Sequence record: MT446416.1
DNA: 64,000 bases
Source of the DNA: Escherichia virus TH47
Strand: one strand, 5' to 3'
The notes under the pieces are model-generated. The model made no database searches. It was not told the origin of the DNA and worked only from the letters and a program-made list of their open reading frames with translations. Each line of letters starts with the position of its first letter. Position 1 is the first letter of the stretch. A program made the translations under genes and the position numbers. Below are positions 2,722 through 21,725 of this stretch, piece after piece.

Positions 2722-2756
2722 AAATTAATTATATCAGTACTCAATACTAATGTCCA
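2722..2756 (-). promoter_or_regulatory. sigma70-like early promoter upstream of tRNA-Ser
   Basis: Minus strand TGGACA - 17 nt - TATAAT with TGA immediately upstream of -10; tRNA 5' end 7 nt downstream of -10. Confidence 0.5.
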
Positions 2757-3126
2757 GTACTATTTTCGGAAAAAAAACCTTATCCAACACTTCAAATATT
2801 ACAGAATTTAATTCATGTGGAAACACATTTTCATATACTGTGCGTTTCTGAAATTCATCTTCTTCATCAGCACTTAGCTGGAAGGTAATGTATTGAGCAT
2901 TTATACTATTTATTATATCACGTAAAGTGTTATTTGTCCTTTTTATTTCTTCAAATGATTCAAAAACAATTTCATCGTCATTTATAAGAAATGATTCACC
3001 ATATCCATTGAAAATGCGAATACCAGGATTATCTTGACACCAGTTATTGGTATGGTCTGTCGTTAATTCTGAATTCAAAAATGATTTAAGAAACTCTTCA
3101 TACTTTGAAATGTCTTTAACACTCAT
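2734..3126 (-). CDS. hypothetical protein, EE-x-x-FQ-x-S-T-V motif family
   Basis: 130-aa ORF; contains DEEDEFQKRTV about 35 aa from C-terminus. Confidence 0.5.
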   Translation of the reverse strand: MSVKDISKYEEFLKSFLNSELTTDHTNNWCQDNPGIRIFNGYGESFLINDDEIVFESFEEIKRTNNTLRDIINSINAQYITFQLSADEEDEFQKRTVYENVFPHELNSVIFEVLDKVFFPKIVLDISIEY

Positions 3127-3482
3127 ATCACCAACTTTAATTAAAAAAATGGATGGTTACGCTTTTAAACGCCGCTGTTAATTCAGCTTTATAACCACCC
3201 GTTTTAACTTGCCTTTCGGCTACCTTGACGTGGGGGCGTACAGGCTACTAAAAGCAACTTCTGTAAACATATTTCCACACCTTACCCTTTTAAATAAAAG
3301 TCCATCCGGTTTTCCAGTTTGGTGAAGGACTGTCACCTCTAGTTTAAACCTGCTAGTCAAGTAATAATTGCCTATCGTCCAATTATCAAACCCGTCTAGG
3401 TTAACATTCACCACTTCCTAGAGTGCCAGAGATCTTGTTCTGGATTTCATCGACGTAACTTACACCATATACGTCTGATTGT

Positions 3483-3518
3483 GGAATTCATTATATCAGT
3501 ACTGAACTATTTAGTCAA
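3483..3518 (-). promoter_or_regulatory. sigma70-like promoter
   Basis: Minus strand TTGACT - 17 nt (AAATAGTTCAGTACTGA) - TATAAT. Confidence 0.55.
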
Positions 3519-3871
3519 GAATTAATTCGCATTTTTTTGAATTTACCAATCAAGTACTTATAAAACTCATAACTGAACAATGGTTCTTGTACAGTACTCA
3601 TTTGAAAATATTCTTCTTCTGTCTTTGGTACAGGGGAAGTACCTGAAACAAAGGGATTATAATCTTCTCCTGTATAAGTAGAAACTTCAACATCAATTGA
3701 ACTAATATCTTTACGTAACGAAATGTTTAACATAACAGTTCGTTGAACAGAAGTTTCTTCATCTTCATCCCACTGTAAGTACAATCTCATTAGTTTATCC
3801 CAATTATAAAATTGGAAGTTATGTAAATCTTCAAGGTTGCGTGTTATTGCTTCTTCATATTCACTAAACAT
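3515..3871 (-). CDS. hypothetical protein, EE-x-x-FQ-x-S-T-V motif family
   Basis: 118-aa ORF; contains TEEEYFQMSTV and a second degenerate copy EDEETSVQRTV. Confidence 0.5.
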   Translation of the reverse strand: MFSEYEEAITRNLEDLHNFQFYNWDKLMRLYLQWDEDEETSVQRTVMLNISLRKDISSIDVEVSTYTGEDYNPFVSGTSPVPKTEEEYFQMSTVQEPLFSYEFYKYLIGKFKKMRINS

Positions 3872-3895
3872 ATCAAGTTGCCATATAAGTTAATA

Positions 3896-3930
3896 TACAA
3901 ACATTATACAGTACTGAACTATTTAGTCAA
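3896..3930 (-). promoter_or_regulatory. sigma70-like promoter
   Basis: Minus strand TTGACT - 16 nt (AAATAGTTCAGTACTG) - TATAAT; same 26-nt core as promoter at 3483-3518. Confidence 0.5.
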
Positions 3931-3940
3931 GCTTTTTTCA

Positions 3941-4105
3941 TCATCGGTGCACGATATGCATCAGTACTTCTTCGTCGAGTTCAGTACTTAAATATGCTTT
4001 GTACACGCACTTGATACGTATAACATCCCACATTCTAGAATCTAATGGTAGATAATAAGGATTCCACTTTAATTTTTGGCGTTTCATCCACTCTTCATGT
4101 GTCAT
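3941..4105 (-). CDS. small hypothetical protein, MTHEEWM paralog (54 aa)
   Basis: Hand-translated ORF below track cutoff: MTHEEWMKRQKLKWNPYY...; start overlaps upstream stop as ATGA. Confidence 0.45.
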   Translation of the reverse strand: MTHEEWMKRQKLKWNPYYLPLDSRMWDVIRIKCVYKAYLSTELDEEVLMHIVHR

Positions 4106-4266
4106 ATTCGTACCAGTAGTTCAATTAAGTACATTTCATATGCTGGATCGTTGATAAGTTTATCATACAGATGTGACTCTGAAATGAATTCCCAATGATA
4201 TTTTCGCCATTTACCAAAACCTGCATATCTAAAATTAATGTCATTCATCCATTCTTCATGTGTCAT
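4102..4266 (-). CDS. small hypothetical protein, MTHEEWM paralog (54 aa)
   Basis: MTHEEWMNDINFRYAGFGKWRKYHWEF...LLVRI; ATGA overlap with both neighbours. Confidence 0.45.
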   Translation of the reverse strand: MTHEEWMNDINFRYAGFGKWRKYHWEFISESHLYDKLINDPAYEMYLIELLVRI

Positions 4267-4427
4267 AATCGTACCATTATTTCAATAAAGAACCACGGAT
4301 ATACTTCATGGTTTATAAGTTTATCGTATTCTGCTGGGTCTGATATAATTTCCCAATGATATTTTCGCCAACTACCTATACCCGAATATCTAACATTAAT
4401 GTCATCCATCCATTCTTCATGTGTCAT
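4263..4427 (-). CDS. small hypothetical protein, MTHEEWM paralog (54 aa)
   Basis: MTHEEWMDDINVRYSGIGSWRKYHWEI...IMVRL; near-identical 5' nucleotide sequence to the two downstream copies. Confidence 0.45.
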   Translation of the reverse strand: MTHEEWMDDINVRYSGIGSWRKYHWEIISDPAEYDKLINHEVYPWFFIEIMVRL

Positions 4428-19666: not shown

Positions 19667-19667
19667 A

Positions 19668-20078
19668 TCAACTCCCCACTATTACTGTGTTTTTAATTTC
19701 TAACAATTCACTATACATCTTCTTCAATTGTACAATATCTTCATATAAAATACCACCCATATCATCAATCAAAGAACGTTGAAATAGTGATTCATCTGAC
19801 TGTATTGTGTCCAAATCAGAAATTTTCAAAACTGTATCTGGGTTTAGTGTGTTTACAATAAGTTTGTTTGTGTATGGTACGTATGTGATCTTGATATTCA
19901 TTTCTGAATCAAGGGCATACAACCTCAAAACTGACAAATCACCACAAAGTTGGATTTTTGGTTCATCAAACTCATCAGACCACCACATAGTACTAGTCAT
20001 ATAATTGACGTGTTGGTTCAAATGTGATATATCCAAATCGAAATAATATTTTAGTTCATTGTGTAAATCTAAACTCAT
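19668..20078 (-). CDS. hypothetical protein, EE-x-x-FQ-x-S-L-I motif family
   Basis: 136 aa; SDESLFQRSLI. Confidence 0.5.
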   Translation of the reverse strand: MSLDLHNELKYYFDLDISHLNQHVNYMTSTMWWSDEFDEPKIQLCGDLSVLRLYALDSEMNIKITYVPYTNKLIVNTLNPDTVLKISDLDTIQSDESLFQRSLIDDMGGILYEDIVQLKKMYSELLEIKNTVIVGS

Positions 20079-20133
20079 AAATTTATCCTCTATGCATCAT
20101 TATCTTACATTGTAGGATAAACCCACGATAATG

Positions 20134-20529
20134 TCAAGATGTGAATTGCTTATACCAGTGATACAATTCTTTTAATTCTTCAGTACTGAATAGAACATCT
20201 TCAATCGTTGTTTGTTGGAAGTGGTAATCTTCGTTTAAGTACATTGAAATATTTTTATATACTTTTCGATTACATTTTCCAAGAAACGATGTTCTTTTGG
20301 ATGTGTATTCAATAAATGTTAACTTATCTAATTCTATATCCAATGACAATTTAGTACAGTATTCAGTATCATCTACGTACATAAGTTTATTTGAATAACA
20401 ATCAACTGTGATATATTCTTTATGTGAGAATTGATATATACCATTAAATTTTTTACCATTTGTACTTCTGAATTTTTCAAGGTAATAAGATAGTGGTTTA
20501 GATATTGTACTACCAATAGTATTATTCAT
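20134..20529 (-). CDS. hypothetical protein, EE-x-x-FQ-x-T-T-I motif family
   Basis: 131 aa; NEDYHFQQTTI. Confidence 0.5.
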   Translation of the reverse strand: MNNTIGSTISKPLSYYLEKFRSTNGKKFNGIYQFSHKEYITVDCYSNKLMYVDDTEYCTKLSLDIELDKLTFIEYTSKRTSFLGKCNRKVYKNISMYLNEDYHFQQTTIEDVLFSTEELKELYHWYKQFTS

Positions 20530-20691
20530 AGAACCTCAAAATTTAGACAAGAAAAATGCCCCGAAGATCGGGGCAGTACGAAAAAGATTTTGTACAAAAA
20601 AGGGGAATAATACAATCAAATAAAATGATAACGTATCATTATTATGTAAGGGAGGAAAGTAACATGATAATGTTAACCATTGCTGGTATAA

Positions 20692-21243
20692 TTATTTATC
20701 ATTTAATTCTTTTAATTGAGCTTGTATATCACCAGAAAGTTTGCGGATTTTCTTGAAACAGTACACGCTATCATCAAGTTCAAGTTCTAGACCGTGAGTG
20801 ATTGCATAAAGCATTTCAGCAAGCACTAGATCCTGACGCATCCAGTTACCATTCTTATAGGTTGTCATTACACAATACGGACAGTGGCTGTTTCCGGTTT
20901 GTTTACCCAGGAATACAGATTGGATTGTATCATGCTTGAAACCTACAAAAGATTGGTTGATCTTATTGATTTCAGCTACAACGTCCATTTGTGCACCAGT
21001 GTTAATTGCAAACACTTCATCACCGTTCTCGGTTTTGTTGATGTTTAGTTCAATATCACTACCAAGTTTACGAACAGCCAATGTATAAAGTAGGATTTCA
21101 TACATATCATAATTAGTTGTTTCGCCATTTGGTGCAGTTACATCGAGACTAACACCATGCATTTTTACTTCAGTACTGAATCCATCTTTATCTGCTAGAA
21201 AATCAGTGATTTGTTCAGTTAGGATTTTAATTTGGTCAATCAT
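20692..21243 (-). CDS. hypothetical protein
   Basis: 183-aa ORF; no recognisable motif. Confidence 0.4.
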   Translation of the reverse strand: MIDQIKILTEQITDFLADKDGFSTEVKMHGVSLDVTAPNGETTNYDMYEILLYTLAVRKLGSDIELNINKTENGDEVFAINTGAQMDVVAEINKINQSFVGFKHDTIQSVFLGKQTGNSHCPYCVMTTYKNGNWMRQDLVLAEMLYAITHGLELELDDSVYCFKKIRKLSGDIQAQLKELNDK

Positions 21244-21261
21244 TATTCATATCCTTATGTT

Positions 21262-21284
21262 GGAAAAGCCCCCATTACGGAGGC
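21262..21284 (-). terminator. rho-independent terminator candidate
   Basis: Minus strand hairpin GCCTCC-GTAAT-GGGGGC followed by TTTT, just after stop of ORF 21297-21725. Confidence 0.4.
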
Positions 21285-21296
21285 TTTTTAATCTAA

Positions 21297-21725
21297 TTAT
21301 AGGGAAGCTTCGTATTCAGCTACAATGTCAACCATCTCATTGACAAAGTTGATGTGGTCATGAGTTACTGTGCGGAAATCATAAACCAGTGATTGTTGGA
21401 AGAATACGTCTTCAGCCAGATTACCTTCAAAGTTCAGGTCGATGTTTTCTTCATCGTTGGTCGGAGCAACTTTGATATTTAGTTGATTTTCATCAACAAC
21501 CAATTTCACAACACAACCCAATGCAATCGCCAGTACATAAGCAGGTTTCTTCGCCGCTTCAGAACGGAATGGAGCACGTAGAGCACAAATGGTGCTGCTA
21601 ATCTCATCATTCTGTTCTTTATATTTAACGTTAATCATCAGTTCTTCAATTTTGACGCTCTCGATTACACGACCAGTTTCAGCAGCGAAGAAAGAGTGGT
21701 TACGGATAGTTTGTTCGATATTCAT
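21297..21725 (-). CDS. hypothetical protein, EE-x-x-FQ-x-S-L-V motif family
   Basis: 142 aa; AEDVFFQQSLV. Confidence 0.5.
   Translation of the reverse strand: MNIEQTIRNHSFFAAETGRVIESVKIEELMINVKYKEQNDEISSTICALRAPFRSEAAKKPAYVLAIALGCVVKLVVDENQLNIKVAPTNDEENIDLNFEGNLAEDVFFQQSLVYDFRTVTHDHINFVNEMVDIVAEYEASL

Follow-up and report, generated by a model that had tools for sequence, protein, structure and literature searches.

A multigene family of small proteins sharing a 13-residue motif in Escherichia virus TH47 and other RaK2-like jumbo phages

Introduction

Expansions of small paralogous genes have been described in several jumbo phages. About 10% of the gene products of Klebsiella phage RaK2 were reported as paralogues (PMC3622015), and 22 paralogous open reading frames (ORFs) were reported in phage CBB, in which a stretch of short ORFs with RpoD-like promoters, comparable to the one studied here, was read as a set of early host-takeover genes (PMC5259590). 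Here, we analyzed a stretch of 64,000 nucleotides from Escherichia virus TH47 (sequence record MT446416.1, hereafter named the window; position 1 is its first letter) and describe a family of 14 small proteins that share an internal 13-residue motif. The locus resembles the RaK2 and CBB expansions in being made of tandem, same-strand, short hypothetical ORFs that lie in a presumed early region, belong to one clade and are left unannotated. It differs from them in that neither this family nor its motif or fold is described in the two reports (PMC3622015, PMC5259590). In addition, the members display only about 13% identity and yet retain a nearly invariant 13-residue element, and they have positional orthologues across genera. 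No description of the family, motif or fold was found in the literature, nor anything specific on the family, on the transcriptome or on anti-defence work in Asteriusvirus or Alcyoneusvirus. The family is new and belongs to a phenomenon already known in jumbo phages, the lineage-specific expansion of small early genes.

The window is 96% identical across 8.8 kb to Escherichia phages BF17, Turkey3, Ecwhy_1 and fEgEco12, and 82–87% identical to 121Q, PBECO4-like phages and phAPEC6. The phage is an Asteriusvirus (121Q/PBECO4-like jumbo coliphage), whose relatives are jumbo myoviruses of 348–386 kb.

Results

Fourteen ORFs form a multigene family under purifying selection

The initial annotation had singled out 14 ORFs of 118–182 residues, and all of them were found at the coordinates given below, all on the minus strand. 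The pattern [ED][ED]xx[FY][QM]xx[STL][VILT] matches these 14 and no other of the 367 six-frame ORFs of at least 50 residues in the window. Residue shuffling (2000 rounds) yielded on average 0.16 matches and at most 3, versus 14 observed; with a stricter pattern, 12 matches were observed versus 0.01 expected. The motif starts 32 to 84 residues from the C-terminus, a wider range than the 35–45 residues first proposed, with a typical distance of about 40. Comparison of the copies confirmed that the codons of the motif vary, with AGT, TCT, TCG or TCA for Ser, CAA or CAG for Gln, TTT or TTC for Phe, and GAA or GAG for Glu. Hence, conservation is at the protein level.

Because scoring the members against a hidden Markov model (HMM) built from all 14 of them is circular, leave-one-out HMMs were run against the ORFs of the window. 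In this manner, 11 of the 14 members were regained at E ≤ 1e-4, the weak ones being 7579–8127, 8336–8728 and 18886–19281. The ratio of non-synonymous to synonymous substitution rates (dN/dS), calculated against phAPEC6 orthologues, is below 1 for every member (0.08–0.81, median 0.21), which shows that the members are functional genes. The median for neighboring genes is 0.15, the family being slightly less constrained (Mann-Whitney p = 0.049). Similarly, the median identity to phAPEC6 is 78% for family orthologues versus 84.5% for neighbors. Positive selection was not seen at whole-gene or half-gene resolution. Overall, the 14 ORFs are real genes of a genuine multigene family under purifying selection.

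Most members are acidic, with an isoelectric point (pI) of 4.0–4.9 in 10 of the 14. Two members, 7579–8127 (pI 9.4) and 14398–14940 (pI 9.0), are basic and extend about 40–50 residues past the last helix of the predicted fold, in long, charged, helical C-terminal tails. No further member was detected by hhalign among the neighboring genes (7178–7582, 13563–13946, 20692–21243, 22252–22674 and others).

A highly conserved 13-residue motif

Column statistics were obtained from 67 diverse members anchored on the motif. The consensus is [ST]-E-E-[ED]-[FYL]-F-[Q/M]-x-S-[TL]-[VI]-x-D, with an invariant Phe followed by Gln in 57 of the 67 members (85%) and by Met in the other 10 (15%). Nine motif positions carry 2.5–4.3 bits, and six polar positions reach 2.5–3.95 bits of a maximum of 4.3; the mean column identity of the whole family alignment is only 13%. 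Within the core, the residue after Gln is the least conserved (1.1 bits), being Gln in 19, Leu in 14 and Ala in 5 of the 67 members, with Arg, Lys, Glu, Asp, Met, Tyr and His also found. The three positions of low information inside the motif (2, 6 and 10) follow an i, i+4, i+8 spacing, as would one exposed stripe of a helix. The motif is followed by an amphipathic helix. In some RaK2 copies, the acidic pair is relaxed (TESSAFQ, KEGFAFQ, HDSFFQ) and F-Q-x-S-[TL] is retained.

Two short-motif resemblances were considered. The bacterial β-clamp-binding motif QL[SD]LF was rejected, since Q-x-S-L-[VI] occurs in only about 30% of members, the rest having Q-x-S-T-V, since the terminal aromatic residue is absent and since the segment is structured in the predicted model. 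T-x-x-D resembles an acidophilic kinase site, for which a phage gp0.7-like kinase was considered; the Thr is replaced by Leu in 30% of members.

The motif corresponds to a helix of a predicted α+β fold

A first structure model, calculated from a shallow, orthologue-rich alignment, had a predicted local distance difference test score (pLDDT) of 69 with one of five models folded, and a Foldseek search of the PDB with it returned nothing below E 0.07. This model was superseded by an AlphaFold2 prediction of the 19668–20078 protein based on 56 aligned diverse members, which has a pLDDT of 93.9 and a predicted template modelling score of 0.86, the five models ranging from 92.4 to 93.9 in pLDDT. According to DSSP, the model contains a helix αA (residues 5–13), seven consecutive antiparallel strands (21–86), a helix αB (95–102) and a helix αC (112–135). 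The hydrophobicity of the strands alternates, in agreement with a sheet having one buried face. αB corresponds exactly to the motif, with Ser94 at the N-cap position in the model; the complete 13-residue signature takes in this short helix and the turn after it. The pLDDT is 98 for residues 91–100 and 96 for residues 101–110, which places the motif inside one compact domain.

The N-terminal regions had been described as divergent. This holds for their sequences and not for their fold, since the deep model indicates that they form the same β-sheet domain in all members. The model thus indicates, with high confidence, that all members share a single α+β fold in which the motif is helix αB. What had been seen as diversified modules would be versions of one conserved fold and not effector domains unrelated to each other. 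A profile search of PDB sequences gave no homologue, the sole notable alignment being with engineered tobacco etch virus (TEV) protease tags. We regard the predicted structure as a family fold for which no solved homologue is demonstrated, and its p32-like topology as a lead.

The family is found in RaK2-like jumbo phages of Enterobacterales

The family had not been recognized from sequence, and scans of Pfam, NCBIfam, PADLOC and PHROGs indeed returned no named family. Ten members scanned with Pfam gave nothing but sub-threshold noise, and all 14 scanned with NCBIfam and PADLOC gave no match at E ≤ 1. For the ten members scanned with PHROGs, each best match was a different family of unknown function.

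Word-indexed protein searches retrieved Asteriusvirus orthologues only. Searching with the family profile revealed relatives beyond the window. When 1.84 billion cluster representatives were searched exhaustively with the profile (cut-off E ≤ 0.001), only 61 were retrieved, all of 62–171 residues, with the motif at the same place in nearly all; the family is thus rare overall. The first 100 kb of phAPEC6 contain the 14 orthologues and 5–7 further members (29.9–52.9 kb, past the left edge of the window), which brings the total to about 21 members between 29.9 and 71.3 kb. One phAPEC6 ORF (MK817115, 50593–51027, minus strand), located between gp083c and gp084c and apparently unannotated, contains SELFFQLSTV and matches the family at E 7e-7. 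This ORF scores as a member, so that gene callers overlook copies of the family.

Outside Asteriusvirus, Klebsiella phage RaK2 (Alcyoneusvirus) has at least 13 members in a locus colinear with the window. Seven are clear positional orthologues, 25–43% identical, versus about 30–74% for non-family neighbors. Several members were found by tblastn in Erwinia phage Hallingskeid (366 kb), and 12 lie within 20 kb of a 50-kb metagenomic contig (L004). A Foldseek search against BFVD returned fold matches in RaK2, GAP32, CBB and Yersinia phages fHe-Yen9-03/04; RaK2 protein H6X3Z3 superimposes on the 19668–20078 model with a template modelling score of 0.87. Within the databases searched, the family occurs nowhere but in RaK2-like jumbo phages infecting Enterobacterales and in related metagenomic contigs. 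Because members are spread over RaK2, Asteriusvirus, the Erwinia phage, the metagenomic contig and the BFVD relatives, the expansion predates the split of these phage genera and has been maintained since.

Virion proteome and promoter-like sequences

None of the phAPEC6 orthologues gp083c–088c, 092c, 093c, 103c, 105c, 120c, 121c, 127c–132c and 134c is among the 62 virion proteins that mass spectrometry detected in this phage (PMC7247149, Table 1). The one virion proteome at hand lacks the family.

The best σ70 matches of the window (11/12 or better) are all on the coding strand (14/14), and two of them lie directly upstream of family genes. The first (3903–3930, minus strand; TTGACT-16-TATAAT, 11/12) is located in the spacer upstream of the 3515–3871 start, and the second (20109–20137, minus strand; TTGACA-17-TACAAT, 11/12) in that upstream of the 19668–20078 start. 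As consensus matches only, both are putative promoters.

Members along the window

Below, all genes are on the minus strand and E values are those of the leave-one-out models. At the left end, 2734–3126 (130 residues, pI 4.3; E 7e-5) encodes its motif, EEDEFQKRTV, at 2836–2865, and is 73% identical to its phAPEC6 orthologue with a dN/dS of 0.40. The next member, 3515–3871 (118 residues, pI 4.5; E 1.2e-7), has EEEYFQMSTV at 3590–3619. The basic protein 7579–8127 (182 residues; E 0.025) carries the Met variant EEERFMLSTI at 7759–7788, and its positional orthologue in RaK2 also has an FM variant. In 8336–8728 (130 residues, pI 4.7; E 0.53), a degenerate motif, EEDEFQKNTT, is encoded at 8420–8449; this protein matches 2734–3126 in a pairwise comparison at E 0.005.

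Directly downstream of 7579–8127 lies an ORF of 134 residues (7178–7582, minus strand) with 'SVEEEFQYNLLYPD' about 40 residues from its C-terminus. With SVEEEFQYNLL, it is a candidate degenerate copy and possibly a fifteenth member. Compared with the family profile, it has an hhalign probability of 1.4% and an HMM E value of 0.2, so that membership is without statistical support.

Three more members lie further on. The motif of 13123–13566 (147 residues; E 5e-5), a gene with a RaK2 positional orthologue, is EEMYFQQLTV (13201–13230). That of 13946–14401 (151 residues; E 9e-6) is DEYVFQQSTV (14036–14065), and the start of this gene overlaps by 4 nucleotides the stop of 14398–14940, the second basic member (180 residues; E 5e-5; EEEFFQRSTI at 14623–14652).

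The initial annotation counted seven genes in one tandem array. We find six contiguous, partly overlapping genes (17985–20529), separated by the non-family gene 20692–21243 from the remaining one, 21297–21725. Genes of the array overlap by 4–20 nucleotides, which suggests operon-like coupling. The first gene of the array is 20134–20529 (131 residues; E 1.6e-6), with EDYHFQQTTI at 20203–20232. It is followed by 19668–20078, the protein modelled (136 residues, pI 4.4; DESLFQRSLI at 19767–19796), and by 19262–19666 (134 residues; E 1e-4), whose Met variant EESFFMDSTV (19361–19390) is likewise an FM variant in the RaK2 positional orthologue. The motif of 18886–19281 (131 residues; weak, E 0.024) is EDELFQLSLI (18973–19002). 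Next, 18434–18889 (151 residues; E 3e-7; EEGYFQESLV at 18557–18586) overlaps both of its neighbors, a translational-coupling layout, and is the most divergent of the orthologues, with 49% identity to phAPEC6. The last gene, 17985–18440 (151 residues, pI 4.05; E 6e-6), has EETLFQLSTV at 18090–18119. A terminator-like hairpin (20557–20575, minus strand; stem of 8 bp with 6 GC pairs, followed by a T-run) lies between 20692–21243 and the array. The separate member 21297–21725 (142 residues; E 5e-6) has EDVFFQQSLV at 21384–21413 and is 43% identical to its RaK2 positional orthologue.

Surroundings of the family

The G+C content of the window is about 34%, and the minus strand carries nearly all genes of its first 24 kb. 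Genes 20692–21243 and 13563–13946 (both minus strand) are non-family genes without Pfam match that lie between family members. They occupy the same positions in RaK2, with 48% and 32% identity respectively, and may be functionally linked to the family.

Four tRNA genes, Thr-tgt (1–73), Asn-gtt (1368–1441), Ser-gct (2632–2721) and Arg-tct (5024–5097), all on the minus strand, are interleaved with family genes and homing endonucleases; RaK2 has a tRNA cluster of like kind at the syntenic position. Three free-standing ORFs of endonuclease type (1450–2154, 4466–4990 and 5713–6687, all minus strand), two of which have HNH_3 and NUMOD4 domains, interrupt the family region beside the tRNA genes; the first 100 kb of phAPEC6 contain nothing that corresponds to them. 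ORF 1450–2154, without Pfam hit, is 71% identical to RaK2 ORF219, which is likewise located between tRNA genes.

The C5-cytosine DNA methyltransferase 15438–17327 (minus strand) has 629 residues versus about 286 in 121Q and phAPEC6. It contains a Hint and LAGLIDADG intein at the catalytic P-C-Q motif (GGFP|CFTEG...VVHN|CQSW). Finally, 27025–27714 (minus strand) matches the Pfam Rv2179c-like 3'-5' exoribonuclease family (DEDD-type) at E 3e-9, above the gathering score. Its counterparts are called metallopeptidase in 121Q (gp67), phAPEC6 (gp145c) and RaK2 (ORF173), an annotation that is probably wrong.

Discussion

We tentatively favor, with a probability of about 45%, the view that these genes encode an early, non-structural family of host-takeover or anti-defence binders, in which the motif is a keystone of the fold and not a cleavage site. 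The 14 genes are paralogues of an ancient family, and their products are predicted to be small, soluble, usually acidic single-domain proteins. The leading S/T-E-E-E of the motif would form a helix N-capping box, the invariant Phe and the adjacent Gln or Met would anchor αB on the hydrophobic face of the sheet, and S-[TL]-[VI]-x-D would end αB and set up αC. Given these putative capping, anchoring and helix-closing roles, the motif would hold the fold together as its keystone and might in addition offer a constant functional surface. The proteins would be produced early from host σ70 promoters and would not be packaged in the virion. Most likely, they would bind or inhibit host proteins in the cytoplasm, as a means of host takeover or counter-defence, and each paralogue would owe its own target to the exposed, fast-diverging sheet face.

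Several observations weigh against this view. The early timing is derived from promoter look-alikes, and σ70-like matches total 110 versus 109 expected, which is not above chance. Whole-gene dN/dS indicates purifying selection, and its excess over the neighbors is marginal (p = 0.049). Colinear orthology with RaK2 argues against a rapid arms race, and two members are basic with long C-terminal extensions. The conserved polar residues E, E, Q, S, T and D, set against about 13% identity elsewhere, exceed what a purely structural role usually demands.

The initial annotation proposed a shared processing or docking site. As a processing site, the motif would be cut after F-Q by a Gln-specific 3C/TEV-like or other protease, which would free a C-terminal helix of 25–40 residues. 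The string resembles the TEV (ENLYFQ|G/S) and human rhinovirus 3C (LEVLFQ|GP) sites, with acidic residue(s), an aromatic residue or Leu, and then F-Q. This resemblance is genuine, since the family profile aligns weakly, at a non-significant E of 0.77, to engineered ENLYFQGS tags of PDB constructs. However, the motif lies in a predicted packed helix inside a compact domain (pLDDT 96–98) and not in an accessible linker. The "P1" residue is Met in 15% of members, including 7579–8127 and 19262–19666 in the window, and "P1-prime" is unconstrained, often bulky or charged, rather than a small Gly, Ser or Ala. Strong conservation extends well past the scissile position, up to "P6-prime" (S-[TL]-[VI]-x-D), a stretch that is not read by proteases of this type. 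The window proteins that were compared with Pfam include no 3C-like protease, and the sole nearby peptidase annotation is that of the exoribonuclease-like 27025–27714. The absence of the family from the phAPEC6 virion proteome and the prohead protease of related phages, which is T4 gp21-like and Glu-specific, also count against processing. A cleavage site is therefore very unlikely. A docking site is possible, although we consider it rather unlikely. αB would then be an exposed constant surface for one hub, such as RNA polymerase, a chaperone, an AAA+ protease or a partner from the phage itself, and the variable sheet would recruit differing clients, making the paralogues a set of adaptors. 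The information content of the six polar positions, the persistence of the motif across RaK2, Asteriusvirus, the Erwinia phage and metagenomic contigs, and the retention of many paralogues side by side as positional orthologues are all consistent with docking. On the other hand, the acidic positions are relaxed in some RaK2 members, and helix caps can explain all conserved polar residues. A bolder form of the idea, somewhat more doubtful, is a new fold class of adaptors or inhibitors in which αB ([ST]EExFFQxS[TL]VxD) docks or acts on one host hub, with about 20 paralogues per genome, each of which would turn a differing sheet face to its own host target or defence effector.

Two other explanations start from known small acidic proteins. 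In a polyimmunity-like array, which we judge improbable, each paralogue would neutralize a different host toxin or abortive-infection effector. CdiI (6cp9_B), TriTu (7zhm_D) and Rhs immunity or polyimmunity arrays similarly consist of small α+β proteins, often acidic, diversified in tandem and acting by binding. Tandem arrays of diversified small acidic proteins in several phage lineages, and the early-region context, would fit such a role. Unlike contact-dependent inhibition and Rhs immunity proteins, the present family has no adjacent toxin genes and no sequence match. For a fold of this class, the structural similarities do not rise above noise, Pfam and PADLOC returned no known immunity domain, and stable positional orthology with purifying selection differs from the rapid turnover expected of such arrays. 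Slightly less probable still, the proteins could form acidic rings like those of MAM33/p32 (C1QBP, PF02330), possibly as mixed oligomers via their C-terminal helices, and serve as nucleic-acid mimics or as sponges for basic host proteins. p32 (PDB 1P32) consists of an N-terminal helix, seven consecutive antiparallel strands and two C-terminal helices, the same order of elements as in our model, and the strong acidity of most members is a further likeness. However, p32 is a eukaryotic, mitochondrial protein of about 200 residues versus about 130 in the family, and the trimeric ring is a feature of p32. Two members of the family are basic, and no Pfam MAM33 match at E ≤ 1 was obtained in the ten members scanned. 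Homology was rejected at the sequence level, with an hhalign probability of 0.1% for the family profile against human p32.

More than 80% of the genes of RaK2/121Q-like jumbo phages, which are candidate agents for phage therapy, lack an assigned function. Annotation resources have missed a coherent family of roughly 14–21 genes per genome, PHROGs scattering it over many unrelated-looking singleton families. A diagnostic motif, a high-confidence fold model and a defined phylogenetic range are now available for it, and about 4% of the gene count is turned from hypothetical proteins into one unit that can be tested as a whole. If the adaptor reading were true, RaK2-like jumbo phages would possess a modular, clade-wide host-takeover toolkit. 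If the members are host-takeover or counter-defence binders, as we favor, the conserved helix would offer one mutational handle on the whole family, and the paralogues a ready panel of specificities.

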